From Actinomycetota bacterium (GTDB lineage: Bacteria > Actinomycetota > Actinomycetes > S36-B12), in the NCBI GenBank assembly GCA_003456155.1, contig DMPC01000001.1, forward strand, positions 1 to 34,125: a DNA stretch of 34,125 nucleotides, read 5' to 3'. The position numbers and the translations under genes were made by a program. The notes beneath the pieces were generated by a model, which was not told the DNA's origin, searched no databases, and saw nothing but the letters and a program-made list of their open reading frames with translations. This document shows positions 11,169 through 34,125 of this stretch, piece by piece. Positions within the stretch are counted from its first letter, which is position 1, and each line of letters opens with the position of its first letter.

Positions 11169-11428
11169 ACCTCAACGCTACGGAATGCAGGTGAGCTCTG
11201 CCCCGGCAACGCCCCAGTCTGGCGCGCATCCATGCGGGGCCCTGAGCAAGGCCTCTCGCTCCGCCGAGTCCCATTCACCTGCGATCAGCGAGGAGAGATG
11301 ACCGATGGATATCCTCCCGCAAGCCAACGTCCAGGAAAAAGGGGTGTCAACTCAGCCAACAACAAGCCCGGATGCCCCGTCGTGCCCCTATGCTCGACTC
11401 CACCTGCCCTCAGCAATAGGAGGCCCGC

Positions 11429-11845: not shown

Positions 11846-12118
11846 CACGTGCATCCATGGGCGTACTCATGACCCCGGGGCATGTCGAGTTGACGCACAC
11901 GCCCTGACAAAGGCCGAGCTTGATCTCGGCGCTGGCTCCGCGGTGATCAGCACGAGTGCGACGTAAGTTGATGCTGTTCGCGCGAGTACGTTGACCACGA
12001 CCACCAAGGTTCGTGTGGCTGCGGCGTGAAGTCCCGGGATCTGCACCATTGCACCGCTGAAGTCCATGCTCCTCGCGAATTCCGGGCAGCCGGAAGCCAC
12101 GCTCTGTACTCTTGCGTC

Positions 12119-14032: not shown

Positions 14033-14140
14033 CACCATCGGGCTCACCGATGCGCCCGTGGCGCTGAGCCCGCTGCCACTCATCCCGATGTCGTAGGCCG
14101 GGAGCACCAGGCGACGCCGAAGCACCGGAAGCGCCCATAG

Positions 14141-14340
14141 GTGGCGAATAGTCTGGCGGAAATCCCCACCGCACTCGGTAGAACCCCCGTGCGAATGCTC
14201 GTCCACAACCTCCACATCATCATCAACCGCGATACCGGCGAGATCCTCCGCGAACTGACGATCAACACCGCCAGGGACAGCCAACCCCGCGGCGCCAAAC
14301 CCGGACCCCGCCCTGGACACCGCAAAGGCGGCATGCCCAA
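14141..14340 (+). mobile_element. IS481-like transposase C-terminal remnant (no catalytic core present)
   Basis: The translation ...LGRTPVRMLVHNLHIIINRDTGEILRELTINTARDSQPRGAKPGP... matches, from memory, the conserved tail of actinobacterial IS481/rve-type transposases (..V.V.D..TGELLRELT.DP.RDYQP.G). No upstream DDE region is present. Confidence 0.45.
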
Positions 14341-14365
14341 GGGCTACAAGTTCAAGAAATTAGAC

Positions 14366-14399
14366 TGTCCCGGGACATCCGATAAGAATGTCCCGGGAC
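14366..14399. repeat. two copies of palindromic tgtcccgggac, 23 nt apart
   Basis: Read directly at 14366-14376 and 14389-14399; the gtcccgggac core is its own reverse complement. It lies immediately after the transposase remnant, so it may be IS terminal sequence. Confidence 0.7.
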
Positions 14400-14407
14400 T
14401 TCACAAA

Positions 14408-16349: not shown

Positions 16350-16387
16350 GGGGGAATCCTTCCATCACCGGCCGTAGCCGCGCAGGG

Positions 16388-17404
16388 TCAGCCGCTGACC
16401 CAGGCCTCGACTTCGTCCAGCCAGCCATCCGTGATCGGGGTCTCGGTGGCGATCGTGTACCAGAGGTTGCCGGATTGCTTCCAGTAGTCCTGCATATGGC
16501 GCAGGCCGTCGCGGACGTCGCCCCAGGTGATGTTCATGTCCTCGGGCTGGTAGGCCACACCCATCTCGTCCAGCTTGCCCTTGATGAAGTCAGGGTCGTT
16601 GTCCTGCAGGTGGCTCATGAGGAGCACCCCGAGGGAGACGATCTGACCGTGCAGGAACGGCCGGTGAGTCAGGTGCTCCAGCGAGTAGAAGAAGGTGTGC
16701 TCCGAGCCTTCAATCGGACGTGGATTCCATCCGGTGTTGTTGAAGGCGGCACCCCCCCAACGCAGCGCATCCATCAAGGTTCGAACGCCACGGTCGTTGA
16801 CATCGCGGATGTCAGCCGTATTCGTGATGACCGACTGCATGACTTCGTCGGCCGCGGCGATCCACTCAGGGTCATAGGGCCACTTGACCTCGCACCGACC
16901 CTCACGCTGGGCGTAGGCCCAGTCCCAGTGTCCGGTGTAGTAGCAGACGATGTCGCCGACACCAGACCGGTTGATGAAGTCTGGCGCGCTGCGCACGATG
17001 TCGTAGTCGACATAGACGATCTCGGGGATGGCCCACCCCACGTACTTCAGGATGCCCTTGTCCCGCACGGCAGCGCGCTGGGCGAACGGAGCGTTGACCG
17101 ACATCGACGTCGGGCACTGGTACAGCGGCAAGTTCAGGCGCCAGGCGAAGTACTTGGCGACGTCGATCGCCACTCCCCCGCCGATGCCGACGATGGCCTT
17201 GATGTGTGGGAGCTCGGTCAGATGACGCTCGAGGTCGACGATCTCCAGGGACTCCACCAGGTAGACGTGGCAGTCGGCGTCCGCGAAAGTCGCCTCGAAC
17301 TTGGGCCACAGGTCCTTGGCCGACACGATCAGGAAGGGCGCATTGACGATCTTCGGGATCTCCGGGAGAAGCTCGCGACCGTAGGCCACGTCGAACAGCT
17401 GCAT
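16388..17404 (-). CDS. iron-containing alcohol dehydrogenase superfamily protein (glycerol-1-phosphate dehydrogenase / AraM-like)
   Basis: 338 aa with the nucleotide-binding loop VGIGGGVAIDVAKY and later His-containing blocks (SEHTFFYSLEH, LHGQIVSLG). AAGGAG lies 5 nt upstream of the ATG. Confidence 0.7.
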   Translation of the reverse strand: MQLFDVAYGRELLPEIPKIVNAPFLIVSAKDLWPKFEATFADADCHVYLVESLEIVDLERHLTELPHIKAIVGIGGGVAIDVAKYFAWRLNLPLYQCPTSMSVNAPFAQRAAVRDKGILKYVGWAIPEIVYVDYDIVRSAPDFINRSGVGDIVCYYTGHWDWAYAQREGRCEVKWPYDPEWIAAADEVMQSVITNTADIRDVNDRGVRTLMDALRWGGAAFNNTGWNPRPIEGSEHTFFYSLEHLTHRPFLHGQIVSLGVLLMSHLQDNDPDFIKGKLDEMGVAYQPEDMNITWGDVRDGLRHMQDYWKQSGNLWYTIATETPITDGWLDEVEAWVSG

Positions 17405-17439
17405 TGTTGCTCCTTAGACGAGGTCTTGCTGTGAGTGAA

Positions 17440-18294
17440 TCAGTCCTTGACCGCCCCGAGGCTCAGTCCGCGCACGAGCTGGCGCTGCACGAGCAAGGTG
17501 ACGATCGCTATGGGGATGATGGCCAGGGAGGCTGCCGCCGCCATGGCTCCGTATTCGATGGTGCGTGAGGTGACGAAACCAGCGATGTAGACGGGCAGGG
17601 TCTTGCCGGCCTGGTCGGCCAGGATCAGGGGCATGAGGAACTCGTTCCAGCACAGCAGTGCGACGAAGATGGTTGTCGCGGCCAGGCCTGGTGCCACCAG
17701 CGGCAGGATGATGGAGCGCAGGATGCGGAACTGGCTCGCGCCGTCCACGCGAGCGGACTCCTCAAGCTCGACAGGAATGCCGCTGATGAATCCAACCATC
17801 AGCCACACGGCGAAGGGAAGGTTGATCGCCGCATATGTGATCGCCAGGACGATCGGTTGGTCGTACAGCCCCAGCCCGACCACGATCTGGAATAGGGGAA
17901 CCGCGATCACGATGCCGGGCATGGCCCGGACCAGGATCATCATGCCCTCGAAGGGGCGCCGGGTCCGGAACCGAGGGCGCCGGGCGATCGCGTAGGCGGC
18001 GAAGGAGCCTGAGACCACTGCGATGAGGGTGGCGAGCACCGTGACCACGATGGTGATGATCAGGCTCGCCTGGAACTGGCCGTCCGCGAAGACCGTGCGG
18101 TAGTTGTCCAGGGTCAACTCGCCGCCGAAGAGGCGCGGGGGCGTCTCGAAAATGGCCACACGCGTCCGAAGCGACGTGAGCAGCGTCCAGTAGATGGGGA
18201 AGAGGGCAGCGAGCGTGGCAATGCCCAGGATCGCGTAGGCGGCGATTCGGCCCAGGCGAGTTCCGTTGTGCGTCACGGATTCGCCTTCTTCCAC
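17440..18294 (-). CDS. carbohydrate ABC transporter permease (MalG-like)
   Basis: Six TM segments and an EAA-type loop (ELEESARVDGASQFRILRSIILPL). An alternative GTG start at 18276 overlaps the upstream stop as GTGA. Confidence 0.9.
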   Translation of the reverse strand: MEEGESVTHNGTRLGRIAAYAILGIATLAALFPIYWTLLTSLRTRVAIFETPPRLFGGELTLDNYRTVFADGQFQASLIITIVVTVLATLIAVVSGSFAAYAIARRPRFRTRRPFEGMMILVRAMPGIVIAVPLFQIVVGLGLYDQPIVLAITYAAINLPFAVWLMVGFISGIPVELEESARVDGASQFRILRSIILPLVAPGLAATTIFVALLCWNEFLMPLILADQAGKTLPVYIAGFVTSRTIEYGAMAAAASLAIIPIAIVTLLVQRQLVRGLSLGAVKD

Positions 18295-19148
18295 AGCCGG
18301 TAGAGCGGGAACATCAGCAGGGTGATGATGACGCCGAGGGCAGCCGCCCGGGAGGTCTCCAGGAAGGTGAAGCCCAGCCGGTAGTCCAGGAGGCTGAGGT
18401 TCTGCGTGGCTGTACCGGGACCACCGCCGGTCAGAATGTAGATGATGTCGAAGAGCTTGACACTCTCGATGATCCTGATCATCACAACGACGAGGGCCAC
18501 TGGGGCAAGCAGCGGCAGAATCACGTGCCGATACTTCTGGAAGGTGTTGGCCCCGTCGACTTGTGCTGCCTCGAGAGGGCTCACCGGCAATGCCTGCAGG
18601 CCAGCGAGCATGAGCAGCATCACGAACGCGATGTTTTGCCAGGAGTCGACAATGACAACACTGACGACGGCCATGGTTCGGTCACCGAGCCAGTCGATCG
18701 CGGGCAGACCGAACATCTCCAGGGTCCCGTCGATGACGCCGTTGTCGACGTTCATCATCAAGCGCCACATCAGGCCGACCGCGACCGGAGTGAGAAGCAG
18801 CGGCATCAACAGCGACGATCGGAAGAACCGCGTTCCCCTCAGCTCACGATTTACGACGATCGCCAGGAGCAGGCCGAGAGGTAGTTGAATCGCCAGCGAC
18901 AGGATCGAGATGATCAGCGTGACCTTGACTGAATCCCAGAACGCCGACGACGTCAGCAGGTCACGGTAGTTCTCAAGTCCAACGAATTCGCTGGTTGGCG
19001 TAAGGAGGCTGCCATTGCGGAATGAGATCCACAGCCCCAGCAGCAGGGGCAGGATCACGACACCCAGCAGGAGCAACCACCCCGGGCTGAGGTAGGCCGC
19101 TGTGTATCGGCGAACCTGCCCGGGGGGCGGCTCCTGCTGGGAGCTCAT
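18273..19148 (-). CDS. carbohydrate ABC transporter permease (MalF-like)
   Basis: TM-rich, with the EAA loop SPLEAAQVDGANTFQKYRHVILPLL. Confidence 0.9.
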   Translation of the reverse strand: MSSQQEPPPGQVRRYTAAYLSPGWLLLLGVVILPLLLGLWISFRNGSLLTPTSEFVGLENYRDLLTSSAFWDSVKVTLIISILSLAIQLPLGLLLAIVVNRELRGTRFFRSSLLMPLLLTPVAVGLMWRLMMNVDNGVIDGTLEMFGLPAIDWLGDRTMAVVSVVIVDSWQNIAFVMLLMLAGLQALPVSPLEAAQVDGANTFQKYRHVILPLLAPVALVVVMIRIIESVKLFDIIYILTGGGPGTATQNLSLLDYRLGFTFLETSRAAALGVIITLLMFPLYRLWKKANP

Positions 19149-19151
19149 GTT

Positions 19152-20465
19152 CTAGTTGCCTAGGGTGGCGGAGACTTCGGACTGCATGCTGCTCAGCCCA
19201 TCCTGGACGGAGGTCTTGCCGGTCAACATGTCCTGCACGTGGACCCCAATCTGGTTGGAGACTTCGGCCCACTGCACGAGGGCCGGAAGCCTGCGCCCGG
19301 TCTCAGATGCCGGCCCCAACAGGGCAATGTACGGGTACTTGGCGGTCAGATCGGGATCGGTGACCACTGAGGTGCGCCCGATAGCCGCAGCCCCGTTCTC
19401 GATGAACTTCACCGCGTTGTCCTTGCCGAGGAGGCACTCAAGCACCGCCCAGGCGCTGTCCTTGGCCTTGCTGTCGGCCGGGATGCCGATGTTCCATCCC
19501 GTGAGCTGGGTGATGTCTGTGTCGCCCTTGGGAATGGAGGCGGTTGCGATCTTGTCAACGAACTTCGACTGTGCCGGATCCGTGATGACCGGGTAGTAGC
19601 CCGAGTAGTTGATCATCTGGCCGACGTCTTGCGTCGTGAACAGCGTGGTCGCATCGTCGCCGGTTGCGGTCGTGGCCGACTGAGGGCTGACCGCGAGCAG
19701 GCTCTTCATGAACTCAGTTGCCTTCTGCGCCTCTGGGGTATCAAGGGTCACGTTGCCCGAGGCGTCCTGGAGGTCGCCACCGAAGCTCCACAGGAGCTGC
19801 AGCCACCACCACGAGTTGACGGAGCTGGCATTGGCGATGACCTGACCGTCGGCCAGCCCGCTCTCCTGGATTGTCTGGGCGTTGGCGAGGTACTCATCCC
19901 ACGTTGTGGGCACCTTCAGCCCGAGCTGGTCGTAGATGTCTGTGCGGTACCAGAGCAGGAACGGCTCGGTCGAGAGGTTCAGGCCGTAGGTGACCCCGTC
20001 GTACTTGCTGTAGTCCTGAAGCGGCTGCACGAAGTCCCCGATGTCGTAGGCCGTGGACTTGCCCAGGTAGGAGTCGAGCTCGGCAAGGGCGTTCTGGCTG
20101 GCGAACGGCGCGAGGTACGGGTTGTCGTACTGCACGATGTCGTAGGCACCCTGCTTCGCCTGGAAGGACAGCAGCATCTTCTGGTGGGCATCGCTATAGG
20201 GGGCGTCGACGATCGTCACCTTCACGCCAGTCTTGGCCTCACAGTCCGGAAGGCTCTTCTTAATGGCCTCCTCGGTCGGGCTCGGAATGAGGAAGGCCGT
20301 AATCTCCGATGCGGTTCCGCCACCCGATGCCGCGTCCCCCGATGGGGCCGACGAGGAGGACGAGCAGGCACCGAGGAGCAGGCTCATGGCGGACGCGCCA
20401 GCGATGGCGGCCACCGCAGTCCGGCGATGACGCCGGCGCTTAGCGGGATTGGACTGTGACTGCAC
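19152..20465 (-). CDS. extracellular sugar-binding lipoprotein of ABC transporter
   Basis: GTG at 20465 is preceded by GAAGGAG. The signal with lipobox reads RRRHRRTAVAAIAGASAMSLLLGAC-SSSS. The ORF extension to 20684 overlaps the SIS gene and is Pro/Ser-rich, so it was rejected. Confidence 0.9.
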   Translation of the reverse strand: MQSQSNPAKRRRHRRTAVAAIAGASAMSLLLGACSSSSSAPSGDAASGGGTASEITAFLIPSPTEEAIKKSLPDCEAKTGVKVTIVDAPYSDAHQKMLLSFQAKQGAYDIVQYDNPYLAPFASQNALAELDSYLGKSTAYDIGDFVQPLQDYSKYDGVTYGLNLSTEPFLLWYRTDIYDQLGLKVPTTWDEYLANAQTIQESGLADGQVIANASSVNSWWWLQLLWSFGGDLQDASGNVTLDTPEAQKATEFMKSLLAVSPQSATTATGDDATTLFTTQDVGQMINYSGYYPVITDPAQSKFVDKIATASIPKGDTDITQLTGWNIGIPADSKAKDSAWAVLECLLGKDNAVKFIENGAAAIGRTSVVTDPDLTAKYPYIALLGPASETGRRLPALVQWAEVSNQIGVHVQDMLTGKTSVQDGLSSMQSEVSATLGN

Positions 20466-23079: not shown

Positions 23080-24474
23080 CTATCGGGTGAGCGCGTCCAG
23101 GAACTCACCTGAAGTGGCGATGTACGCGTCAACGTCCGCCTCGTCAATGGCGTAGGAGACCGAGGGACCAGCTGTGGCGATGGCATCCCAGACGCCGCGG
23201 TTGAGCAGGAAGACTTTGCGGGCGTCGGCCAGAGGCAGAACGAGTGAGGCGAAGCTCTCGGCCCCGTTGCGCGGCGCTTGGGGGGTGAGGCGGAACTGGA
23301 TACGGCCGCCGAGCCGGTCGATGGTCCAGGGGAGGCCGACACGGTCTACCTGCCGCTGTAGGCCGGTCTGAAGCTGCTGGCCCAAGGTTTCCACCCGGCT
23401 GCCTGCCGCAGGTGTGAAGATCTCGGCGAGACCGACGCGTGCGGCCGCCATGGACAGTGCGTTGGCGTAGAGCGTGCCGCCCACGGCGAGGCCGTGCGAG
23501 TCGCCGGTCTCGAAGAGACCGGGGTCGTGGTCGCGGTTGGCGCCGACGACGTCGGCGATCTGGTCGGTCATGCCGATGACGCCGATGGGGACCCCGCCGC
23601 CGATGCCCTTGCCTCCGGTGAGCATGTCCGGCTCAAGGCCGAAGGCGATCGTGCCTCCGCCGTGGACGGCGAACTGGACGTGGGTCTCGTCGACGATCAG
23701 GACGGCGCCGGCAGCGCGCACATCCGTATTGAGCGAGGTGACGAACTCCGGGCTAGGGAGCACCAGCCCGCAGTTGGTGAGGGCTGACTCGACGAGGACC
23801 GCCGCCACATCGCCTCGAGCGAGGCGGGCCCTCAGCGCCTCGGGGTCGTTGTAGGGGAGGACGTCGGTGGTCTGCGCGGTGGAGGGGTCGAGGCCGGTGA
23901 GATCGCCTTCCATGCCGCCGTCGTCGCTGCGCGACCACAGCGTCTGGTCCAAGTGCCCGTGGTACTTGCCGTCGAACACCAGCACCGTGGACCGCCCGGT
24001 CGCGACCCGCGCGATGCGGATCGCGTCGGTGTTGGCCCCGGTAGCCGAGAGCGTGAACTGCCACTTCGGAAGGCCGAAGCGCTCAGTGAGCAGCCGGCAC
24101 ACCTCGACCGCGTCGGTGGTCGGGAGCAGGAAGTGGTTCCCGAGGAGTGCCTGGTCGTGGATCGCGCGCACGATGGGCTCAGGAGCGAAACCCGCCGGCA
24201 TCGCCAGGTCGCAGGCGTTGAAGTCGACGTACACGTTGCCGTCGAGGTCCTCGAACTTCGACCCCGAGCCGCGTACGGCGACGACGGGGGCGTGGCGGTA
24301 GAGCGAGCGCATCCAGGCCATCGGCACTCCGCCCGGCATCCTCCGCTCGGCATCGACGAGCCACTGCGCCGAGCGTGGGGTGCGCTCGCGGAACAGGGCG
24401 AGCTCGCGGCCCAGGATCTCGCGGGCGCGCTGGATCACCGTCTCGTCGACGTGCGGATACTGCGGGGCACTCAT
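23080..24474 (-). CDS. class-III (PLP) aminotransferase, glutamate-1-semialdehyde aminomutase-like
   Basis: 464 aa with blocks DLDGNVYVDF, SATGANTDAIRIAR, VLVFDGKYHG, LIVDETH and a Lys-containing LTGGKGIGGG. Confidence 0.85.
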   Translation of the reverse strand: MSAPQYPHVDETVIQRAREILGRELALFRERTPRSAQWLVDAERRMPGGVPMAWMRSLYRHAPVVAVRGSGSKFEDLDGNVYVDFNACDLAMPAGFAPEPIVRAIHDQALLGNHFLLPTTDAVEVCRLLTERFGLPKWQFTLSATGANTDAIRIARVATGRSTVLVFDGKYHGHLDQTLWSRSDDGGMEGDLTGLDPSTAQTTDVLPYNDPEALRARLARGDVAAVLVESALTNCGLVLPSPEFVTSLNTDVRAAGAVLIVDETHVQFAVHGGGTIAFGLEPDMLTGGKGIGGGVPIGVIGMTDQIADVVGANRDHDPGLFETGDSHGLAVGGTLYANALSMAAARVGLAEIFTPAAGSRVETLGQQLQTGLQRQVDRVGLPWTIDRLGGRIQFRLTPQAPRNGAESFASLVLPLADARKVFLLNRGVWDAIATAGPSVSYAIDEADVDAYIATSGEFLDALTR

Positions 24475-24701: not shown

Positions 24702-24865
24702 CACCAAGCTCAGGTCAGGCGCAACTAGAGCGGCAGCCACCTGCTGCGCAGCGGCACTGGCCGTGCTCGCCCTGCCGCTGGCACACCAAGCTCAGGTCAG
24801 GCGCAACTAGAGCGGCAACCACCTGCTGCGCAGCGGCACTGGCCGTGCTCGCCCTGCCGCTGGCA
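24702..24865. repeat. 82-bp tandem duplication, two copies, one mismatch
   Basis: Copy 1 is 24702-24783 and copy 2 is 24784-24865: caccaagctcaggtcaggcgcaactagagcggca[g/a]ccacctgctgcgcagcggcactggccgtgctcgccctgccgctggca. Read directly. Confidence 0.95.
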
Positions 24866-25834
24866 TCTGCTTCAGCGGCAAGCATGGAGCCAGGCGCAGC
24901 TGGCAAGACCACGTACATTCAGCCGGGCTCCCTGGACGTAGATGCTTCATTGAAGTCGTACAACGGCGCCGCCCAGATGATGGACGGCGCTGCAGTGGTG
25001 TACAAGCCGACGTACACCGCCGGCCTGAAGCGAGACCCAGGGGCAACCGTCACAGTCGTCAGCAACGATTTGGTGGTGACCGATGGCACCGTTGCAAGTG
25101 GCGAGACGTACGTTGGTGCCACATACGGCTCGAAATCACGGAAGCTGACGGTCCACGAGAAAATTGGTGGCACCACGTGGGGCACGGGCGAACAGGATCT
25201 CTTCTTCTGCGCAGGCATCGAGATGTGCAACCGCGACTGGTGGCGGGACTTCCCTAGGCTATGGCCCGAGTGGGGCACGGTGGGCACTGTCCAGCTGGAC
25301 GTGGGTGAACCTGGCGAGCAGACCACCGTCACCGCTCGGGTGTTCGCGAAGTGCCGTGAGAAGTCATCCGAGTCACGGCCAAGCGACACAACTTCTCCTC
25401 AATGTGACGAGTCAGATGTGTCAGATGGAGGACTGCTCAGCTTCACGATGAAGGATCTCGAAGGTGATAGCGGCAAGAGGGCCGTGCGGGACAAGTCAGC
25501 AGCAACAACAGACATCGTGTTGGAGACAGAGGGGCTTGACTGGAACGCCTTGATCCGCATCGCGCAGGGCATGGTGCCTGTGCTCCCCGCGCCCTGGATC
25601 CCCTCGCCCATGGATCCTTGGACACATGTCCCGGTGACGATGCTGAGCACGTGTGCACAGGCCATCGCTGCAGGCACGCTAGATAACGCGCGGGCAGTGG
25701 CCTCATCTAACGGCTTCACCGTGAGAGTGTCGATGATCGATTTTCAGCCACAGGTCGGCTCGACGGACGTGAGGCAGGACCGGATCAATGTGGACATCGT
25801 CAACGACCGGATCGTGAACTGTACCTACGGGTGA
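24845..25834 (+). CDS. Cys-rich secreted-type protein with C-terminal peptidase-inhibitor-I78-like domain; N-terminal signal disrupted by the 82-bp duplication
   Basis: The annotated ORF starts at a GTG inside copy 2 of the duplication. With one copy removed, the ATG at 24682 gives MAIYSTLTKLRSGATRAAATCCAAALAVLALPLA-SASAAS, a classic signal peptide in frame with the body. Six Cys are present. The C-terminus C..AG.....VRV......TDVRQDRINVDIVNDRIVNCTYG resembles the I78 family pattern. Confidence 0.6.
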   Translation: MLALPLASASAASMEPGAAGKTTYIQPGSLDVDASLKSYNGAAQMMDGAAVVYKPTYTAGLKRDPGATVTVVSNDLVVTDGTVASGETYVGATYGSKSRKLTVHEKIGGTTWGTGEQDLFFCAGIEMCNRDWWRDFPRLWPEWGTVGTVQLDVGEPGEQTTVTARVFAKCREKSSESRPSDTTSPQCDESDVSDGGLLSFTMKDLEGDSGKRAVRDKSAATTDIVLETEGLDWNALIRIAQGMVPVLPAPWIPSPMDPWTHVPVTMLSTCAQAIAAGTLDNARAVASSNGFTVRVSMIDFQPQVGSTDVRQDRINVDIVNDRIVNCTYG

Positions 25835-25855
25835 CGAGAGCTCATCGCCCGTAGG
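25824..25855. terminator. hairpin between convergent genes (cctacggg ... cccgtagg)
   Basis: 8-bp perfect stem (25824-25831 / 25848-25855) that can extend by 2 bp past one mismatch. It spans the stop codon of the plus-strand gene and sits 27 nt from the YcaO stop. No U-tract, as is common in high-GC actinobacteria. Confidence 0.4.
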
Positions 25856-25881
25856 TCAGGTCTGGGCTGTGCGCTCACAGG

Positions 25882-27195
25882 TCAGAACGTAGGTGGGACA
25901 AACGACAGCGCGCGATCAGTCGTCGCAATCCATGGAAATCGATATGGCTCAAGTTCAGGAGTGACAACCCGGACGACCGCAACTTCGAATTCACGTCCCA
26001 TCTCCAGTTCGCGCGCGTAGACGCGGTCGAAGCCAGCTGCAGCAAGGCCCTCCAGCATCACTGCGACATCACCGTGGAAGGTTCCCGTCGATTGGTCGGG
26101 GATTTCCTGAACGGAGACTGGGCGCGCATTGGTGAAGACCGACTGAGTCGTGAAGACGTCACTGCGTCGGCTCGACTCGAAGGATCCCCTGAGGAAGTCA
26201 TCACGTGCACCCGCAACGAATATGGTGCGGGACTGGGCTGCCTCGGTCACCGCCCGCACCATTGCAATCTCGGGATCAAGGTGGCAGCCGTATCCCTTGT
26301 AGACCCCCGAACCCCTTTCATTCGACCACAAATGCGCCTCGACAGTGGGGATACCGGGCTCAGTGGGACACCAAAGCAGGGAGACCACGGCGTCAGCCCG
26401 GTGTACCTGCTCAAGGAGGCCTCTGATGACCTCGCCCGTGATGGTCGACTGGTCGATCACCAGTCGGGACGCTCCCTTTGCGTGTGCAACACTCCAGCAG
26501 CTGACCGCATCGCGCTCGATGCATTCATACAGCGCAGCGCAAAGCGCTTCTGGCACATGATTGCCGGAAGCGAGGCCATTGGTGGTCGGGGCCCAGGGAC
26601 ATCCGAGCAAGGTCTTCTCACCACTTCCCAGCATGACCAGTGGCTCAGGCAGGTACACCTCGTCGCCGGTGAACAGATCTGATGCCCGGGACCAGTTCAT
26701 CATCCGGCTGTCAACGAGACGGCTCTGCTTGATCTGGGAGAACTGCTCAGGCGGGCACGGCAGGCGGCCGCGCATATCGCCCAGAGTGGCTCTCACATCG
26801 GCGACATCACTCTCCTCGGCAACGAACCGCTCGATCGCCTCCATGGCCGCTGACGTGGCCGCAGCGGGGAGCGTCGCCCCCTTGCCGGTCTCGACAGCAA
26901 GCGTGTCTGAGCCAGGTCGAAATGCGTTTACGACAGGGATCCCCAAGGTGTCGAGGCCAGTGATATCGGCAAGGCGAGTGATGCCTGCCTTGGGCAGATG
27001 GGGCCTTATGCGCTCAAGTGTTCGAACGGGCTCCATCGCCCGATGTGTGCCCTTGACCCAATCCTTCGAAGCACGTAGCTCCCGGCCGTCGATCAGGATG
27101 GGGGCATGCGAATCGCCATTCACTCCGTCTACCCCCCGCACGGACGCAGGGCCACGGCCTGCTTCTTCCGATGACATAGCTCCTCCTGGCGTCAT
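25882..27195 (-). CDS. stand-alone YcaO-domain protein (paralog 1, distal gene of operon)
   Basis: 437 aa with YcaO hallmarks: GITRLADITGLDTLGIPVV, GKGATLPAAATSAAMEAIERF, SGNHVPEALCAALYECIERDA, KGYGCHLDPEIAMVRAVTEAAQSR. The alternative ATG at 27177 has a better SD (AGGAGGAGCT). Confidence 0.9.
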   Translation of the reverse strand: MTPGGAMSSEEAGRGPASVRGVDGVNGDSHAPILIDGRELRASKDWVKGTHRAMEPVRTLERIRPHLPKAGITRLADITGLDTLGIPVVNAFRPGSDTLAVETGKGATLPAAATSAAMEAIERFVAEESDVADVRATLGDMRGRLPCPPEQFSQIKQSRLVDSRMMNWSRASDLFTGDEVYLPEPLVMLGSGEKTLLGCPWAPTTNGLASGNHVPEALCAALYECIERDAVSCWSVAHAKGASRLVIDQSTITGEVIRGLLEQVHRADAVVSLLWCPTEPGIPTVEAHLWSNERGSGVYKGYGCHLDPEIAMVRAVTEAAQSRTIFVAGARDDFLRGSFESSRRSDVFTTQSVFTNARPVSVQEIPDQSTGTFHGDVAVMLEGLAAAGFDRVYARELEMGREFEVAVVRVVTPELEPYRFPWIATTDRALSFVPPTF

Positions 27196-27218
27196 TGCTC
27201 GACAGTGCGATCAATGCT

Positions 27219-28499
27219 TCATCTGAGCAGTTGGTCTGGGACGGATGGAATGAAGGACTTCGCACGATCCGTGACCGCCACCCAGGGAAAGCGGTAGGGC
27301 TCCAGCCCCGGCACCAGCACGCGTACCACTGCCACCTCGAACTCTTGACCCATCGTCAGCTCCCGTGCCAGCACTGTGTCGAAGCCAGCGCGGGCGAGAC
27401 CGTCGAGGATGACAGAGACATCCCCGTGGAAGGAGCCCGTTGCCCGATCGGGCAGGTCGTTCACCGAAACTGAAGTGGAGTTGTATGTGAACAAACCGGC
27501 CCCGTGAACATCACTGCGTCGGCTCGACTCGAAGGATCCCCTGAGGAAATCATCGCGAGCCCCAGCCACAAAGATGGTCCGCGCCTGGACCGCCTCGGTG
27601 ACGGCGCGGATCATGGCGATCTCCGGATCGAGATGACATCCATAGCCCTTGTACATGCCGAGCCCGGTATCGTCTGACCACACAAACGCCATGCACGTGG
27701 GAATCCCAACTTCGGTCGGACACCACATGATCGCCACGTCAGAGTCCGCTGAGCGAATCTGCTCGATCAGGCCGCCAATGATCTCACCACGCACCGTGTC
27801 AAGGTCGACCATGAGACTGTTCACGCCCTTGCGGTGGGCTACCTGCCAGCAACTCGTCGCATCACGCTCAACCACTTCATAGAGGGCCGCACACAACGCC
27901 TCGGCCACGTGATTCCCTGAAGCGAGGCCATTGGATGACGCCGCCCACGGTGTCCCGATCATCTCCGGCTGAGAGCACGGCAACTGCACCAAGAGCTCGG
28001 GCACGAACTGCTGCTCTCCGGTACGGAGGTTCCACATGGAGGACCATGGGAATGCGCGATTCGCGACAACGCGTGCGTAGGCCATGAGGGGAAGACGATC
28101 GACGGGGGCAGCCAAGCGGTCGCCAACCTCGTCAACCGTCGCGATCAGGTCCCGAACGTCATCTTCTTCCCCTACGAAGCGCTCGATGGCCTCCATCGTG
28201 GCCGAGGTGGCCGCGGCCTCCAGCGTCGCCCCCTTGCCCGCCTCCACGGCCAGCGACCCCGACGCTGGCCGCGTGGCGATCACCACCGGAACACCGAGTG
28301 TGTCGAGTCCAGTGATGTCCGCCACGCGCGTGATCCCTGCCTTGTGGAGGTGGGGTCGAATCCGTGCCAGAGTGAGCGAAGGATCCATCGCTCGGTGTGT
28401 TCCTGCCACCCACTCCTTGTCGGCCCGGATCAGCTCTGAGCCAAGTCGGATCGCAGGGAAGGACTCGTGTGCCGAAACGCCTGACTCGCCTTGCGTCAT
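27219..28499 (-). CDS. stand-alone YcaO-domain protein (paralog 2)
   Basis: 426 aa with the same hallmark blocks (GITRVADITGLDTLGVPVV, GKGATLEAAATSATMEAIERF, ALYEVVERDA). The ATG lies 3 nt after the TAG of the upstream ABC gene (TAGgccATG). Confidence 0.9.
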   Translation of the reverse strand: MTQGESGVSAHESFPAIRLGSELIRADKEWVAGTHRAMDPSLTLARIRPHLHKAGITRVADITGLDTLGVPVVIATRPASGSLAVEAGKGATLEAAATSATMEAIERFVGEEDDVRDLIATVDEVGDRLAAPVDRLPLMAYARVVANRAFPWSSMWNLRTGEQQFVPELLVQLPCSQPEMIGTPWAASSNGLASGNHVAEALCAALYEVVERDATSCWQVAHRKGVNSLMVDLDTVRGEIIGGLIEQIRSADSDVAIMWCPTEVGIPTCMAFVWSDDTGLGMYKGYGCHLDPEIAMIRAVTEAVQARTIFVAGARDDFLRGSFESSRRSDVHGAGLFTYNSTSVSVNDLPDRATGSFHGDVSVILDGLARAGFDTVLARELTMGQEFEVAVVRVLVPGLEPYRFPWVAVTDRAKSFIPSVPDQLLR

Positions 28500-28502
28500 G
28501 GC

Positions 28503-31304
28503 CTAGAGAACCTGTCGAGTCGCGAGCGCATGGAAAGCACCATGGCGTTCCATGAGCTCCAGGTAGGTGCCCTCCTCGACGACCCGACCAGCCTGCATCA
28601 TCGCAATGCGATCGGCCCCGATAATCGTCGAAAGCCGATGGGCGACGACAATCCGGGTCATTCCGAGCGCTGCGAGGTTCTCGCTGACGACTCGCTGCGT
28701 GACATTGTCGAGAGCGCTCGTTGCCTCGTCCAGCAGCAGGATGCGAGGTCGTGTGGCCAGCGCACGAGCAATGAGGAGCCGCTGGCGCTGTCCACCGGAG
28801 AACGCGCCACCGTTCAGCGTGATCATGGTGTCCAGTTTCATCGGCATGGCATTGATGTCATCGGCGAGCGCCACGACCTCAGCCAGCTCCCATGCCTCTT
28901 CGGCAGACAGTGTCGTCGCGCCAGCAAGATTCTGGTGGATTGTGCCCGGCATCAGCTGTCCGTCCTGGAGCACCACTCCGAACTGACGCCGAACCGATTC
29001 AACATCCAGGGAGGACAGATCCTGATCGTCGAACCGAACTGAACCTGCCTCCGGAGTCTCAAACCCCATGAGCGCACGCAATACCGTGGACTTGCCGCAG
29101 CCCGACTGTCCCACGAGTGCGACCATCTCACCCGCATTGATGTGAAGATCGAAATCATCCAGCACGGCCGGGCTGTCGGGATGATAACGAAAGGTCACCG
29201 AGCGGAGTGAGACTTCACCGCGGAGTGGGCCAGGGTCAGAGCGCCCTTCACCCGATTCCGGTGCCTCGGCCACAAGTTCAGCTGCGCGCTGCATCGCCGG
29301 TCGCAGTTGCAGTCCCGTGCCGATGCCCGTGACAAAGGTCATGATCCCGGCGATGAAGAGCATGTAGGTGGTCTGGAACGCGATGAACGCTCCGACATCC
29401 CTGCCTGTGTCTGTGAGAAGCACGCCAGCAAAGAGCACCGCCGTCGACAACGAGCCGACTGTTGCCCCGAAGAGCATCTGGTGTGAAATGCGAATAGTGA
29501 GCTGCTGGCCAACAGCATCGCGAAAGCGCTCGGCCCAGGCTGCGAAGGCTCGGGGCTCAGCTCCGGCCACACGCAGCTTCGGGATGGCACCCAGCACCTG
29601 GTAGAAGAAGCCGTTCACCCGACCGGTTGCCTCGTCGACCGATCGTTGAGCACGAGCGACACGCGTAGCGAAGATCAATGACAAAGCCAACACGATGAGG
29701 CCCCACGCCATGGCGACGAGGGCGAGGGTGGGGATGTAGATGAACAGGATCACGACTGAGACCAGCGAGGCAATGATCACGGGCAATGCCCCGATGATCG
29801 ACTGCTCAATCGGGTCGCGTGCAGTCTCCAGCGCCGCCAATCGCATGCTGAGGTCACCGGGGCCGAGTCGCTTCACGAGCGCAATCGGACTGCGCAGCAC
29901 CCGACCCCAGATACCGCGCTGGAGCTTCAGAGACACTGATGCCTCAAGGCTCGTCGCTGCCGCCGTCTGCGCCATCTGCACCGGCAATACGGCGATAGCG
30001 GCCATCACCAGCGCGACAACCAGCCAAGCCAGCCTGGCGCGGTCGCCCTCGGGGATGATTTCACCGTATACAACACCGGAAGCCAGCGGAACCGTCAACG
30101 TCACAGCAGCGATGACGGAGGACCACAGCAGCACGCGCACTACCTGACGGGACTCGCCCGAAAGCGCAAGGCGAATGAGCCGCGAGGGACTCAGGTTCTC
30201 GCCCACTGGGGGCTTGGAGAACACGAAGGCGTGCGCGATCAGTGACGGCGCGCCAGCCGCGTCCGCATCCACCTCAATGCCGTTGGCATCGATGATGACG
30301 CCTTGGCCCTTGCGGATCACCAGGGCAAGCGGTGCTCCCTCGACGGAGAAGCCGACCATCGGCTCCACCGTGTTGACCCACCACTGCCCAGATAGCGTCA
30401 CCGTACGCACGAACAGCCCTGACGTGGTGGCAATTGCACGGACCGCAGCGGTTCCCTCGCGCCCGCGCAACCCACCCCTAGGGATCTTGATCGAGAAGCC
30501 ATTCACGTGAGCGACCATCGATGCGACCACCACGAGCGGCTCGTCTGATCTGACTGACGACACAGAGGTCCCGCGGTCGACAAGCTCACGAGCGAGCAAA
30601 CGCAGACCTGCGGCCTCGATCTCCGCGGAGACTGCGGGCTCGGTCAGCGCTCGTTCGCGCTCCTTGACCTCGCCCTGCACGAACGAACGAACGGCACAAT
30701 CCCCCGCCAGAGCGAAGAGCCACGTGACTCCCGTCAGCCGTTCGGCGGCATCGACGAGGTCGAGCGGATGCGCAGTGAGTACGGTGCTGCCTTGACCGAC
30801 GATGCTCATGCGCCCTGCGATGGGTGCGCCACCTTTCGGCATTGCGGTCCCGGCCAGTGTGGATTCCCCCTCCACTACACGAACCCAGGACAGCCGGTCG
30901 ACGATTGCGGCGTTTCCAGATGTGATGATCATGGGTTCCGTACTCAGCCGGTCGACATGACCTGCAGGTGGAGGCACCGTTGGCCGGATCACGGAGCAGA
31001 GGGCCTCGGCTGTCGCGATCACTGCGGCCGCGAACTCGTCATCGGTCGCCTCTGCAAGGGGAACCTCAACAGCCGTGGCGTGGTGGGCCAGCACCCAGAC
31101 TTGACCCGGAGGCGGGGCGGGTGTCGCGAGAATCGCCGGTGCGAACAGCGTGACGACGGGAACGCGACGTCCGGCACCCTCACCCGGGACATCCTCCGCA
31201 AGAAAGATCGTCGTGTCACCCGCCCGAAGGAACAATGGGGAGCTCGGATCGAACGGCTCAGCTCGCTCGACTGTGATGACTTCGCTCTCTGGCATCGCGC
31301 TCAC
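28503..31304 (-). CDS. ABC exporter permease/ATPase with about 390-aa N-terminal extension (NHLP-type bacteriocin export, TIGR03797-like)
   Basis: 933 aa. It has a six-TM exporter domain, Walker A GQSGCGKST, signature FSGGQRQR, Walker B ILLLDEATSALD and H-loop VVAHRLS. The GTG start overlaps the upstream TGA (GTGA). Confidence 0.9.
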   Translation of the reverse strand: MSAMPESEVITVERAEPFDPSSPLFLRAGDTTIFLAEDVPGEGAGRRVPVVTLFAPAILATPAPPPGQVWVLAHHATAVEVPLAEATDDEFAAAVIATAEALCSVIRPTVPPPAGHVDRLSTEPMIITSGNAAIVDRLSWVRVVEGESTLAGTAMPKGGAPIAGRMSIVGQGSTVLTAHPLDLVDAAERLTGVTWLFALAGDCAVRSFVQGEVKERERALTEPAVSAEIEAAGLRLLARELVDRGTSVSSVRSDEPLVVVASMVAHVNGFSIKIPRGGLRGREGTAAVRAIATTSGLFVRTVTLSGQWWVNTVEPMVGFSVEGAPLALVIRKGQGVIIDANGIEVDADAAGAPSLIAHAFVFSKPPVGENLSPSRLIRLALSGESRQVVRVLLWSSVIAAVTLTVPLASGVVYGEIIPEGDRARLAWLVVALVMAAIAVLPVQMAQTAAATSLEASVSLKLQRGIWGRVLRSPIALVKRLGPGDLSMRLAALETARDPIEQSIIGALPVIIASLVSVVILFIYIPTLALVAMAWGLIVLALSLIFATRVARAQRSVDEATGRVNGFFYQVLGAIPKLRVAGAEPRAFAAWAERFRDAVGQQLTIRISHQMLFGATVGSLSTAVLFAGVLLTDTGRDVGAFIAFQTTYMLFIAGIMTFVTGIGTGLQLRPAMQRAAELVAEAPESGEGRSDPGPLRGEVSLRSVTFRYHPDSPAVLDDFDLHINAGEMVALVGQSGCGKSTVLRALMGFETPEAGSVRFDDQDLSSLDVESVRRQFGVVLQDGQLMPGTIHQNLAGATTLSAEEAWELAEVVALADDINAMPMKLDTMITLNGGAFSGGQRQRLLIARALATRPRILLLDEATSALDNVTQRVVSENLAALGMTRIVVAHRLSTIIGADRIAMMQAGRVVEEGTYLELMERHGAFHALATRQVL

Positions 31305-33505
31305 TCCTGCACCAGCCTCGCGTAGACACCGTCAAGGGCCATGAGTTCTTCATGACGACCCATCTCTACGACCCTGCCCGATGACATGACGAGAATCAGG
31401 TCGGCGTCACGCACGGTACTGAGTCGATGTGCGACCACGATCGTCGTGCAGCCGCGGCGCTGTAGAGCTGCGTCCACCTCAGCCTCAGTCTCAGCGTCAA
31501 GCGCGCTGGTGGCCTCGTCGAGAAGCAGGATGGAAGGGTTGCGCACGAGGGCACGTGCAATCTCCAGCCGTTGTCGCTGCCCTCCCGACCAGTTCGTTCC
31601 ACCATCGGCGACGACGGCTGCGTAGGATCCGATTCGCGCGGCGATTGCGGAGTGGATCTGCGCATCCTGGGCGGCGCGAACGAGATCCTCTTCCGAGGTC
31701 GACGTATCCCACAGGGTCAGGTTCTCCTTGACGGTGCCGCTGAACAAGGCGATCCGCTGGTCGACCATCGCGATCGAGCGACTGATGACAGGACGAGGAA
31801 TGTCCTGGCGCAAGCGACCGTCGAATCGAACTTCACCAGACCACGGCTCATGAAGGCCGGCGAGCAGGCGCACCAGTGTCGACTTTCCGCTGCCGGAGGT
31901 GCCGACGATGGCAACCCGCGCGCCAGGCGGAATGTCGATCGAGAAGTTGTCAATGAGGGGTGGGACTGTGGTCTTGAATCCAAAGGTGACATTGCGCATG
32001 GAAATCGCCCCGCGAAGGCGGGCCTCTTCCCCCGGCATCAATGCAAAGCGCTGGATTCTCGGGTCGCAGGAGACATCGATCTTCTCGTCAAGCACGTCGT
32101 CGAGTCGTCTCACCAGATTCTGGACCTGCTGCATCATCCATGCGAATCCGACAAGGTCGGCGATCGGTCCCTGGAAGTAGTTGACAAGGACCGTGAAGGC
32201 GACCAGCGAGCCGATCTCAAGCGATCCGTTGATCACCTGCAGTGCGCCGACGCCTAGCACCGCAGCCGATGTGAGCGCCCTGAGCAGCGTTGGGACGGCA
32301 TTTCCGACCTGAGTGTGCAGCGCGATCTCCTGCCGCACATCGGCGACACGCACTGCGGTGCCCTCCCAACGAGCGTAGAAGTCACCTTCGAGGCCACCAG
32401 CCTTGATGGTCTCTAGCGTGAAGGCTCCATAGGCGGTCGTCTGGGCAAGCATCGCCTGCTGCTGCACGAGGAGTCGTGCCGAGTCGCGTCGGCGCTTGAG
32501 GGCGCTGCGAAGCGCAAGGAGGTTGCCGAGTGTGAGAATGAGCGCGATCAAGGCCAAGAACGGATCAACGACGAACATTGCCACCGCATAGACGGCGACA
32601 GTGATGGCACCCACCGAGACGACAGCGAGTCGACCGGTGAGCAGCGCCGCTACCTCCTGATTGTGCTGAACACGCTGCGAGAGGTCGGGGATCGACCGCG
32701 CCATGAAGTACTTCTCAGGCAGACGTAGCGCCTTGCGAACGAAAGCCGATGAATCGACGATCGTCATCCCGATTGAGGCACGAATGAGCACGCGCTGTTG
32801 AAACCAAGTGATGAGCACTTGCAGAGCAACAATTGCAAGGAGCCCGATGATCAGGCTCGAGGCCGCACTTCGATTCCCGCTGATAAGCACGTCATCGAGG
32901 AACATCTTCGAGATCGCGGCAATAGCTAGGCCGGGCACCGTCACCATGAGGCCGAGCAGGACCACCGCGATGACTTCGTTCAGCGCCTTGAAGACCCTCT
33001 GCAGCACCCCTCGCCATGGGCGTGGCCTTGAGCCACTCTTCGTGAAGTCTGGGGAGGGGCGGAGAATCAGGCATACCTTGGAGTACTCGGTCTCGAGTTC
33101 TGCGGATGTTACGAATCTCGGTCCGAATGCAGGATCGTTGAGTTGGGCTCCCCCCTCGACCAATCCCTCAAGCACCACAAAGTGGGACCCCCTCCAGAAG
33201 AGGATGACCGGGTAGCCGTTCCTGTGGAGGTTCGCTGCACGCAGGTAACTGCCGTGTCCGTCCAATCCATAGTGTCGGGCCGCCTTCAGCAGATCCGACA
33301 TGGATGTACCGTCCCTCGAGGCACCGCATGTCTCGCGCAGCTCTTCGAGTGGAATCCACTTCCCGTAGTAGGCGAGCACCATTCCGAGGGCCGCAGCACC
33401 GCATTCGGTGACCTCCATCTGGAGGTACGTTGGCACCCTAACGCGGCGGTCGCTGCCGTGAGGCAGGCTTGCCTTCTTCTCAGAGGCTTCCTCGGTGACA
33501 GTCAT
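31301..33505 (-). CDS. C39-peptidase / permease / ATPase ABC exporter (double-glycine leader processing; NHLP-type, TIGR03796-like)
   Basis: 734 aa. The N-terminal C39 domain has catalytic Cys (LQMEVTECGAAALGMVLAYYG), His (GSHFVVLEG) and Asp (LNDPAFGP). The ABC motifs are Walker A GTSGSGKST, WSGGQRQR, ILLLDEATSALD and VVAHRLST. The ATG shares one base with the HlyD TGA. Confidence 0.9.
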   Translation of the reverse strand: MTVTEEASEKKASLPHGSDRRVRVPTYLQMEVTECGAAALGMVLAYYGKWIPLEELRETCGASRDGTSMSDLLKAARHYGLDGHGSYLRAANLHRNGYPVILFWRGSHFVVLEGLVEGGAQLNDPAFGPRFVTSAELETEYSKVCLILRPSPDFTKSGSRPRPWRGVLQRVFKALNEVIAVVLLGLMVTVPGLAIAAISKMFLDDVLISGNRSAASSLIIGLLAIVALQVLITWFQQRVLIRASIGMTIVDSSAFVRKALRLPEKYFMARSIPDLSQRVQHNQEVAALLTGRLAVVSVGAITVAVYAVAMFVVDPFLALIALILTLGNLLALRSALKRRRDSARLLVQQQAMLAQTTAYGAFTLETIKAGGLEGDFYARWEGTAVRVADVRQEIALHTQVGNAVPTLLRALTSAAVLGVGALQVINGSLEIGSLVAFTVLVNYFQGPIADLVGFAWMMQQVQNLVRRLDDVLDEKIDVSCDPRIQRFALMPGEEARLRGAISMRNVTFGFKTTVPPLIDNFSIDIPPGARVAIVGTSGSGKSTLVRLLAGLHEPWSGEVRFDGRLRQDIPRPVISRSIAMVDQRIALFSGTVKENLTLWDTSTSEEDLVRAAQDAQIHSAIAARIGSYAAVVADGGTNWSGGQRQRLEIARALVRNPSILLLDEATSALDAETEAEVDAALQRRGCTTIVVAHRLSTVRDADLILVMSSGRVVEMGRHEELMALDGVYARLVQE

Positions 33506-34125
33506 CAGCGGAAGATCTCCGATGCCACGGACTGACGCGAAGTCTCGATGGACGCGAGCCCGATTGACGTGATGGGCGGCGCCTTCGGCGGACCCTCACC
33601 GACAGTCCATGCGTACCCGCTTGGAGTGCTTGCCGGCACGAGCTCGATCTGCACCTCGTACAACGGCCCTTGCTGTGCCACCTCCGCAGCCAATGATCCG
33701 GACCCCAGCACCGCGGCTATACGAGTGCTCGACACCGGAGTCTCGCTCACGTTCTCGACTATCCCCATGAGCCGGCCACCGCTCTGTTGGTTCACCGTCG
33801 GGAACGCGATGGTCACATTCTGGCCAACGAGAAGTCCACTCACCTGGGCCGATCCCACCAGTCCGAGGGCCATGGCGCTCTCTCCTGCCGGTGCCAGCAG
33901 GAAGACCGGGGAACCCACTCCCGTCACCTGACCGACTACGGCGTCGCTGTCGGCAACGACACCATCCATGGGAGAGACAACCTCAATCTCACCGACGGCT
34001 GGATTGATGAGGGTGGCAAGCCTCTGCCCTGTGGTGACCGAATCGCCCTCCGCAACAAACACAGCACCGATCACCCCCGATTCGAGGGTTGCGACCGGGA
34101 GAAGACCCGACTTGGGTGCGATCGC
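33505..34125 (-). CDS. HlyD-family membrane-fusion/secretion adaptor, 3' part only (gene runs off window edge)
   Basis: The reading frame stays open from 34074 to 34125 (AIAPKSGLLPVATLESGVIGAVFVAEGDSV...). It shows HlyD beta-barrel-type blocks (VSPMDGVVADSDAVVGQVTGVGSPVFLLAP). The listed start at 34074 is only an internal GTG. Confidence 0.75.
   Translation of the reverse strand, partial: AIAPKSGLLPVATLESGVIGAVFVAEGDSVTTGQRLATLINPAVGEIEVVSPMDGVVADSDAVVGQVTGVGSPVFLLAPAGESAMALGLVGSAQVSGLLVGQNVTIAFPTVNQQSGGRLMGIVENVSETPVSSTRIAAVLGSGSLAAEVAQQGPLYEVQIELVPASTPSGYAWTVGEGPPKAPPITSIGLASIETSRQSVASEIFR

Follow-up and report, generated by a model that had tools for sequence, protein, structure and literature searches.

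A ribosomal-peptide locus with Nif11-leader precursors, a TfuA-methyltransferase fusion and two YcaO enzymes at the edge of a sequence window from an uncultured Actinomycetota bacterium

An eight-gene peptide locus at the window edge

We analysed a window of 34,125 nucleotides (nt; positions 1 to 34,125 of contig DMPC01000001.1, assembly GCA_003456155.1) from an Actinomycetota bacterium, and found that its right-hand end contains the 3' two-thirds of an eight-gene locus for a peptide that is synthesised ribosomally and then modified post-translationally (a RiPP). The locus consists of two genes for precursors with a Nif11 leader and of a translationally coupled operon of six genes, in the order tfuA-OMT (a fusion of TfuA with an O-methyltransferase-family module, OMT), hlyD, C39-ABC (ABC1), ABC2, ycaO-A and ycaO-B. 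The explanation we favour, and hold to be probable, is TfuA-dependent thioamidation of Nif11-leader, hydrophobic, bacteriocin-like peptides, together with their methylation, cleavage at a double-glycine (GG) site and export.

Five close-packed genes of this locus lie on the minus strand of the window (Table 1). An initial annotation of the window had described five open reading frames (ORFs) there, and all of them were found where it placed them; its assignment of the products to the HlyD, C39-ABC, ABC and YcaO families agrees with the Pfam and NCBIfam matches. It had also proposed a single, tightly coupled operon, and the junctions on which it relied were confirmed in the sequence: a 1-nt overlap (TGATG) between hlyD and the ABC1 gene, a GTGA overlap between the ABC1 and ABC2 genes, the arrangement TAGgccATG between ABC2 and ycaO-A, and a 23-nt gap between ycaO-A and ycaO-B. 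Public gene calls use later starts for two of the proteins, six codons downstream for YcaO-B (431 amino acids, aa) and the ATG at 31295, three codons downstream, for ABC2 (930 aa). No precursor-like ORF was found in the window (tblastn E > 7; leader hidden Markov model, HMM, E > 1), and Pfam searches with its large ORFs identified no TfuA, E1/ThiF-like, dehydrogenase or lanthionine-enzyme protein.

A search for the exact C39-ABC protein yielded six contigs, L001 to L006. Four of them (L001, L002, L004 and L005) encode the identical protein in DNA that is 99.6% identical to window 24784-34125; L006 is 100% identical to the window in its DNA; and L003, an NCBI contig of a metagenome-assembled genome (MAG), has the window's own downstream flank and begins inside the tfuA-OMT fusion gene. 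The full hlyD gene (301 aa) lies at 9096-10001 of L001, with DNA 99.6% identical to the window. Directly upstream of it, in every contig that reaches that far, is the 773-aa tfuA-OMT gene, with a 4-nt ATGA overlap, and in the upstream-reaching contigs tfuA-OMT is preceded by two short genes, preA and preB, of 100 and 101 aa. Positions in these near-identical contigs were converted onto the window numbering and are given in Table 1 as virtual window coordinates.

The locus thus carries a caution about window edges. The absence of a precursor and of a partner enzyme is an edge artefact, because the window ends inside hlyD, and it is this cut that made the system appear partner-less and substrate-less. 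The initial annotation's remark that no precursor or partner gene was in view holds for the window and fails beyond its edge, where the near-identical contigs supply both. Its broader view of a RiPP-type system was right, as was its expectation of a substrate upstream of 34125 with a GG site and a leader of the Nif11 or nitrile-hydratase-leader (NHLP) type: two such precursors are present, each with a TIGR03798 leader followed by a GG site.

Table 1. Features of the locus and its convergent neighbour, in window or virtual window coordinates
Feature	Position	Strand	Length	Match or remark
PreA	37453-37755 (virtual)		100 aa	read from near-identical contigs
PreB	36920-37225 (virtual)		101 aa	read from near-identical contigs
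tfuA-OMT	34407-36728 (virtual)	-	773 aa	read from near-identical contigs
hlyD start	34410 (virtual)	-		read from near-identical contigs
HlyD-type periplasmic adaptor, cut by the window edge	33505-34125	-	C-terminal 206 of 301 aa	HlyD_3, E 1.3e-10
ABC1, peptidase-containing ABC transporter (PCAT)	31301-33505	-	734 aa	TIGR03796 passed
C39 double-glycine peptidase domain of ABC1, residues 24-152	33050-33436	-		PF03412, E 8e-30
ABC2, permease/ATPase without peptidase domain	28503-31304	-	933 aa from GTG	TIGR03797 best
N-terminal extension of ABC2	30546-31304	-	~253 aa	outside the TIGR03797 model
YcaO-A, family-wide YcaO	27219-28499	-	426 aa	PF02624
YcaO-B, second YcaO paralogue	25882-27195	-	437 aa	PF02624
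Convergent ORF	24845-25834	+	329 aa	stop 47 nt from the YcaO-B stop codon

The architecture is conserved well beyond these strains. The order tfuA(-OMT), hlyD, C39-ABC, ABC2, ycaO, with one to nine Nif11 precursors nearby, recurs in L008, L009 and L012-L018, and the same gene order is seen in four more distant fusion-bearing contigs that were fetched separately (L034-L037); the architecture occurs in more than 12 Actinomycetota metagenome genomes. The operon includes tfuA in L001, L002, L004 and L005, in the L003 MAG contig and in every one of the more distant members.

Precursors, modifying enzymes and exporter

PreA and PreB, as read from the L001-type contigs, match the Nif11 family of Pfam (PF07862) and pass the TIGR03798 leader_Nif11 model with 53.2 and 52.6 bits (cutoff 32.3; proteins of L001). 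Both leaders are 72 residues long and end in ...EEQLAAIAGG, and both genes are preceded by GGAG-type ribosome-binding sites. The cores, QLRNEGAVIGVGVVVGAGAVGAAAVAGV for PreA and FQEETFIVVGGMVGGSAVVAVGLTAAAGF for PreB, have about 28 residues, are rich in Ala, Gly and Val and contain no Cys; that of PreA has no Ser or Thr either. Core statistics were compiled from 25 cores of fusion-bearing loci. Their mean length is 28.8 residues, Ala, Gly, Val, Ile and Leu make up 76% of all positions, and Cys and Lys/Arg occur twice each in the whole set. Asp or Glu is found within the first six residues in 23 of the 25 and past position 12 in none, Ser or Thr is present in 24, and the last residue is Ile, Ala, Val, Phe or a similar one. 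The initial annotation had anticipated a core rich in Cys, Ser, Thr and Gly, which does not describe these Ala/Gly/Val-rich peptides.

The precursors match the class II bacteriocin family PF10439 weakly (E 0.002-0.004; 17.5 and 18.3 bits, the cutoff being 27.1), a likeness that is limited to the composition of the core. The intergenic regions after the precursor genes show no significant RNA structure (z -1.3 and -0.8) and no evidence of an attenuator, and scans of the extended locus for promoters and terminators gave results at chance level.

Both YcaO proteins belong to PF02624, with E-values of 2.1e-58 for YcaO-B and 9.3e-65 for YcaO-A (198.6 and 219.5 bits against a cutoff of 25.7, over profile positions 1-325), and they are 62% identical to each other. 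The best NCBIfam model for both is TIGR03266, the YcaO of McrA thioamidation, to which YcaO-B scores 220.0 and YcaO-A 231.6 bits, below the equivalog cutoff of 365; the SagD-type model TIGR03604 gives 108-113 bits (113 for YcaO-A) against a cutoff of 219. Among PDB entries, the methanogen thioamidation YcaO MJ1094 (6pe3) is the best match of both (E 6.7e-30 for YcaO-B and 1e-29 for YcaO-A). The ATP/Mg-binding motifs are intact in the two proteins: S..EA.ER and TE..Q.R are present, in YcaO-B as GKG...S..MEAIER and RAVTEA.Q.R, and E..ERD is visible in the alignments with MJ1094. The C-terminal PxPxP motif, a mark of azoline-forming YcaOs, is absent from both. By these comparisons, YcaO-A and YcaO-B are closest to the TfuA-dependent, thioamide-forming YcaOs and not to the azoline-forming ones.

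Orthologues of YcaO-A with 50-79% identity occupy the same operon position in L007-L018, and nearly all of L019-L033, whose sources include Sorangium, Streptomyces and MAGs of Gemmatimonadota and Myxococcota, encode a relative with 33-42% identity immediately upstream of tfuA. The majority of family members possess only one YcaO (L008, L009, L013-L018 and L034-L037). Full-length orthologues of YcaO-B, with 69-75% identity, occur in three lineages and include those of L007 and L012. In a neighbour-joining tree, YcaO-B and the second copies of L007 and L012 form a clade that is sister to the YcaO-A clade (including L007-L013), which indicates that the duplication is old and has been kept in some lineages. 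The Acidimicrobiales MAG contig L012 carries nine Nif11 precursors in two arrays (1-1601 and 11301-12647), and four of these precursors lie between its two ycaO genes, an arrangement suggesting that each YcaO paralogue has its own precursor set. In L008, a pair of genes for an ABC-2-type ATPase and permease (11626-13379, minus strand), without an equivalent in the window, faces the only ycaO in convergent orientation and might encode an immunity transporter.

The TfuA domain of the 773-aa fusion matches PF07812 (E 1.5e-39) and the PDB entry 6xp8 (E 1.6e-26). Its best NCBIfam model is NF033432, with 151 bits against a cutoff of 235, and the N-terminal 440 residues of the fusion are 34-37% identical to the TfuA of Streptomyces- and Sorangium-type clusters. 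The C-terminal half consists of a dimerisation domain and a Methyltransf_2 domain (PF00891). The DxGGGxG motif for binding of S-adenosylmethionine (SAM) is invariant, and an AlphaFold2 (AF2) model of the methyltransferase (mean pLDDT 86.8) has a DnrK-like fold (Foldseek E ~1e-18). Full-length fusions of this kind form about 55 protein clusters at 90% identity, all of them from metagenomes or MAGs and none functionally named; the methyltransferase module is absent from L017, L018 and the distant loci with adjacent ycaO and tfuA. It is very likely that the fused methyltransferase modifies the same peptide as YcaO and TfuA.

Between these two parts, the long-form TfuA has an all-helical middle region (L001 7480-8190; residues ~235-472 of protein P0002) that is absent from the 217-aa archaeal TfuA. 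This region has no Pfam match, its profile search against PDB sequences returned the SurA N-domain only, at a non-significant E of 0.13, and a Foldseek search with the whole model returned only methyltransferase matches. We regard the region as a candidate peptide-binding module. ORFs resembling ThiS and ending in GG were seen near the clusters and were rejected as spurious-looking.

On the export side, ABC1 contains the Pfam domains Peptidase_C39, ABC_membrane and ABC_tran, and it passes TIGR03796 (864.9 bits against a cutoff of 853.3, model positions 1-710). The best PDB match of its C39 domain is LahT150 (6mpz, E 2.9e-36), and Gln29, Cys35 (in ECGAA), His108 (in HFVVL) and Asp124 (in NDPA) are aligned and identical with their LahT150 counterparts. 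Walker A, the ABC signature, Walker B and the H-loop are intact in ABC1 and ABC2; alignment and motif check agree here with the initial annotation, which had noted a complete catalytic triad and all ATPase motifs. ABC2 scores best with TIGR03797 (653.2 bits against a cutoff of 709.4; model 1-686 over residues 254-932) and the full-length HlyD of L001 with TIGR03794 (76.7 bits against 156.2). Since these are the best-matching models and the scores stay below their cutoffs, ABC2 and HlyD are divergent relatives and not equivalogs. The initial annotation was right in taking the export trio to be of the NHLP/Nif11 type.

The N-terminal extension of ABC2 has no Pfam match at E <= 10, its family profile finds nothing among PDB sequences, and its single-sequence AF2 model was unusable (pLDDT 38). 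It is conserved family-wide, with 22 invariant columns, and may be a substrate- or leader-binding domain. In L034, the ABC2 region (16383-19189) is called as two ORFs of 579 and 365 aa, which reflects either a frameshift or assembly error or a genuine split gene.

Proposed biosynthesis and alternative explanations

The mechanism that we propose builds on features observed directly: which genes are present, how six of them are coupled, to which families they belong, that the catalytic motifs are intact, what the cores are composed of and that the architecture is conserved. Precursors of about 100 aa would be made with the 72-residue Nif11 leader, and YcaO-A and YcaO-B would activate backbone amide carbonyls in the Ala/Gly/Val-rich core with ATP. 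The TfuA domain would deliver sulfide equivalents, probably by way of a ThiS-like thiocarboxylate encoded elsewhere, to give one or several backbone thioamides, and the two paralogues would probably act on different precursors or at different sites. According to PMC13063428, TfuA hydrolyses a thiocarboxylated carrier. Thioamidation could be iterative, as it is for the YcaO/TfuA pair TsaH/TsaI, which thioamidates the Val/Met/Ala tail of thiostreptamide S4 iteratively, as the first, proteolysis-protective step (PMC8153245). The methyltransferase tethered to TfuA would add one methyl group to the same peptide. Carboxylate O-methylation is the simplest guess because the acidic head of the core is conserved, and an Asp or Glu side chain within the first six core residues is our best candidate for the acceptor. 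The presence of a LahT-like domain and the type of leader suggest that the C39 domain would cleave after GG (or AG) and that the machine formed by ABC1, ABC2 and HlyD would export a hydrophobic product of some 28 residues, similar to a class II bacteriocin. A two-peptide product is conceivable, given the two precursors.

Several points weigh against this proposal. Thioamidation is deduced from homology and gene context, as the family has no observed product, and the precursors and the fusion gene were read from strains 99.6% identical to the window and not from its own DNA. Neither YcaO reaches the equivalog cutoff of any specific NCBIfam model. The ycaO and tfuA genes are not adjacent, unlike those of the characterised pairs, hlyD and the genes of ABC1 and ABC2 (~5.9 kb) standing between tfuA-OMT and ycaO-A. 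Genes for ThiS, ThiF or other sulfur carriers were not found in the loci examined, and no RRE-type domain for leader recognition was detected. The methyl acceptor cannot be inferred from the fold, because the fold family comprises O-methyltransferases, N-methyltransferases (RosA, PhzM), the S-methyltransferase DtpM and even non-methylating enzymes, and the acidic core heads are also seen in L017 and L018, relatives that have TfuA only.

Other chemistry by one or both YcaOs seems to us unlikely; it would consist of azoline formation at the few Ser or Thr residues, or of amidine formation as in bottromycin, klebsazolicin or streptamidine, and would imply that TfuA serves only one of the two enzymes. 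YcaO enzymes share a single ATP-dependent mechanism of amide activation and differ in the nucleophile used, all but one of the 25 cores offer a Ser or Thr, and the retention of two paralogues from before the split of the species in the A and B clades hints at different roles; some reported clusters also contain additional ycaO genes whose function is unknown (PMC8120280). However, the two paralogues are 62% identical and both match thioamidation YcaOs best, their SagD-type scores are half of their McrA-type scores, and neither an E1/ThiF-like partner nor an RRE nor an FMN dehydrogenase was found in the 22 kb of L001. The missing PxPxP motif and a PreA core without Cys, Ser or Thr are further points against it, and an N-terminal amidine needs a free core N-terminus, which arises only on export.

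It is likewise quite improbable that YcaO-B is a redundant copy or a non-catalytic partner, whether as a heterodimer subunit or as a scaffold that binds the substrate for YcaO-A. A dimeric state is typical of YcaO proteins, and the prevalence of family members with one YcaO would suit such a role, but the ATP/Mg-binding motifs of YcaO-B are preserved, its full-length orthologues persist in separate lineages, and the B copy of L012 follows its own four-precursor array, which points to substrate specialisation. The initial annotation had read the operon as two partner-less, stand-alone YcaOs wired to an exporter, without TfuA and outside any characterised RiPP class. This agrees with the content of the window, which has no TfuA, E1-like protein, dehydrogenase or precursor of its own, but the extended contigs refute it: tfuA-OMT overlaps the start of hlyD in all near-identical contigs that reach upstream, the MAG contig L003 among them, tfuA is present in every more distant family member, and the two Nif11 precursors follow beyond it. 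This explanation retains almost no probability, and the architecture belongs with the YcaO-TfuA thioamidation clusters, in which Nif11 precursors are on record (PMC8120280).

If TfuA-dependent thioamidation is correct, the locus would define a structurally new family among the few thioamide-bearing ribosomal peptides, with long, hydrophobic, bacteriocin-like products, and the fusion would physically link sulfur delivery to a second tailoring step. We regard it as a plausible variation on the formation of thioamide RiPPs by YcaO and TfuA, with several features not reported before, and as a target for natural-product expression. A bolder version, which we consider doubtful, is that the methyltransferase S-methylates a thioamide to a thioimidate, or that the paired YcaOs produce runs of thioamides along a membrane-helix-like Ala/Gly/Val peptide. 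S-methylation is conceivable because the fold family includes DtpM. Should either hold, uncultured Actinomycetota would possess a new RiPP class of methylated, polythioamidated, possibly two-peptide products that are membrane-active or metal-binding.

Relation to known systems and flanking genes

Malit et al. 2021 (PMC8120280) searched for clusters in which ycaO and tfuA stand side by side and reported Nif11-like precursors in some of them, from Desulforegula, Anabaena, Rhizobium and Simkania as well as from Ruegeria, so that the general combination of Nif11 with YcaO-TfuA was already known in silico. Their clusters share with ours a Nif11-type leader with a GG site, YcaO and TfuA. They differ in that ycaO and tfuA are adjacent there, whereas here the three exporter genes stand between them, a Methyltransf_2 domain is joined to TfuA and the loci come from uncultured Actinomycetota hosts; mining based on ycaO-tfuA adjacency would miss the TfuA-OMT family because of this separation. 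The Desulforegula cluster has dedicated NHLP/Nif11-type transporters and, unlike our locus, a B12-dependent radical SAM enzyme, and neither type has a known product. In Nonomuraea, TfuA is fused to a PCMT-type methyltransferase (PMC8120280). The literature searched, in which subscription journals are thinly covered, contains no description of a product, of a TfuA-Methyltransf_2 fusion or of an exporter between tfuA and ycaO, and no report of these core types. What remains unusual in the locus is the fusion of TfuA with a methyltransferase, the placement of the exporter genes between tfuA and ycaO, the duplicated YcaO and the type of core.

Adjacent ycaO-tfuA genes with Nif11-leader precursors, as in the clusters of Malit et al., were also seen in L019, L021, L022/L033 and L026, from MAGs of Gemmatimonadota, Longimicrobium and Chlamydiae. 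The short, hydrophobic cores of these precursors start with R/A/T-T/S-x-x-W. The pairing of a Nif11 leader with TfuA therefore spans several phyla. Two publications that came up as leads were set aside: in the cysimiditide preprint, considered for a TfuA-methyltransferase, "TfuA" is the name of a Thermobifida fusca precursor, and the platform paper of Ayikpoe 2022, which mentions LahT150, thioamides and Nif11, deals with an unrelated thioamitide cluster, Tha-1.

With the thioamitides (thioviridamide and thiostreptamide S4, with TsaH/TsaI), the locus shares a YcaO and a long-form TfuA; there, thioamides are installed iteratively on a Val/Ala-rich stretch as a first, gatekeeping step (PMC8153245). 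The thioamitide C-terminal Cys, HFCD decarboxylase, phosphotransferase/HopA1 lyase pair, His methyltransferase and oxygenase are absent here, whereas our precursors have a Nif11 leader, expected to be removed by the PCAT, and cores two to three times longer. Without the C-terminal Cys, the decarboxylase and the phosphotransferase/lyase pair, no AviMeCys macrocycle is possible, and since the genes for it are absent from L001 and L034-L037 and no core ends in Cys, the locus is not a thioamitide cluster. The methanogen pair that thioamidates a glycine of McrA (MJ1094/TfuA; TIGR03266 and NF033432) provides the best structural and NCBIfam matches and has the same conserved ATP-binding motifs. However, our proteins score 220-232 against 365 and 151 against 235 bits with these models, the substrate there is a protein and not an exported peptide, and the 217-aa archaeal TfuA has no methyltransferase in addition to lacking the helical middle region.

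The NHLP/Nif11 export system (TIGR03794, TIGR03796 and TIGR03797) and the LahT PCAT resemble ours in that TIGR03796 and TIGR03798 are passed and the triad of LahT150 is identical. The differences are the below-cutoff scores of ABC2 and HlyD, the short HlyD (301 aa against a model of 421 positions) and the additional N-terminal domain of ~253 aa in ABC2, which has no detectable relatives. Class II and IIb bacteriocins have in common with our peptides the small, hydrophobic, Gly/Ala-rich cores, the GG site, the export by a C39-ABC protein and the two precursor genes side by side; their leaders have ~20 residues instead of 72, and our locus has backbone-modifying enzymes and no identified immunity gene.

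Bottromycin clusters also have two YcaO paralogues without an E1-like partner and a SAM-dependent O-methyltransferase that esterifies Asp (in part, PMC4603692). Their follower peptide, Cys-derived thiazoline, macroamidine and radical SAM methyltransferases have no match here and they have no TfuA, so that our locus, with a leader in place of a follower and with TfuA, is not bottromycin-like. Nor is it an azoline-forming TOMM/LAP cluster: C and B proteins are absent, with no partner genes in the 22 kb of L001, the SagD-type score is below its cutoff, and the cores, with two Cys in 25, are not Cys/Ser/Thr-rich. A daptide-like function of the class III aminotransferase at 23080-24474 was considered and rejected, as L001 and L002 lack this gene in their flank and Thr is not the last residue of the cores.

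The 329-aa convergent ORF was excluded as a member of the system: it has no Pfam or NCBIfam match, occurs in near-identical strains only and is absent from distant family members. The rest of the window encodes unrelated housekeeping functions, including the aminotransferase, a DUF1349 protein, a SIS protein, a sugar ABC importer, DeoR and ROK proteins, a Virginiamycin B (Vgb) lyase-family protein and others; a 589-aa ORF at 8676-10445 (plus strand) has no Pfam match. The Vgb-lyase-family protein (12026-14032, plus strand, 668 aa) consists of repeated units (808 bits in four stretches), and a close paralogue or orthologue of it adjoins the cluster in other strains. Synteny between strains breaks at about window position 24784, just past the convergent ORF. 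Past this break, L003 retains the window's own flank, and in L001 and L002 the aminotransferase/DUF1349/SIS flank is replaced by a 92% copy of the Vgb-lyase-family region (L001 18722-21023, corresponding to window 12143-14405).

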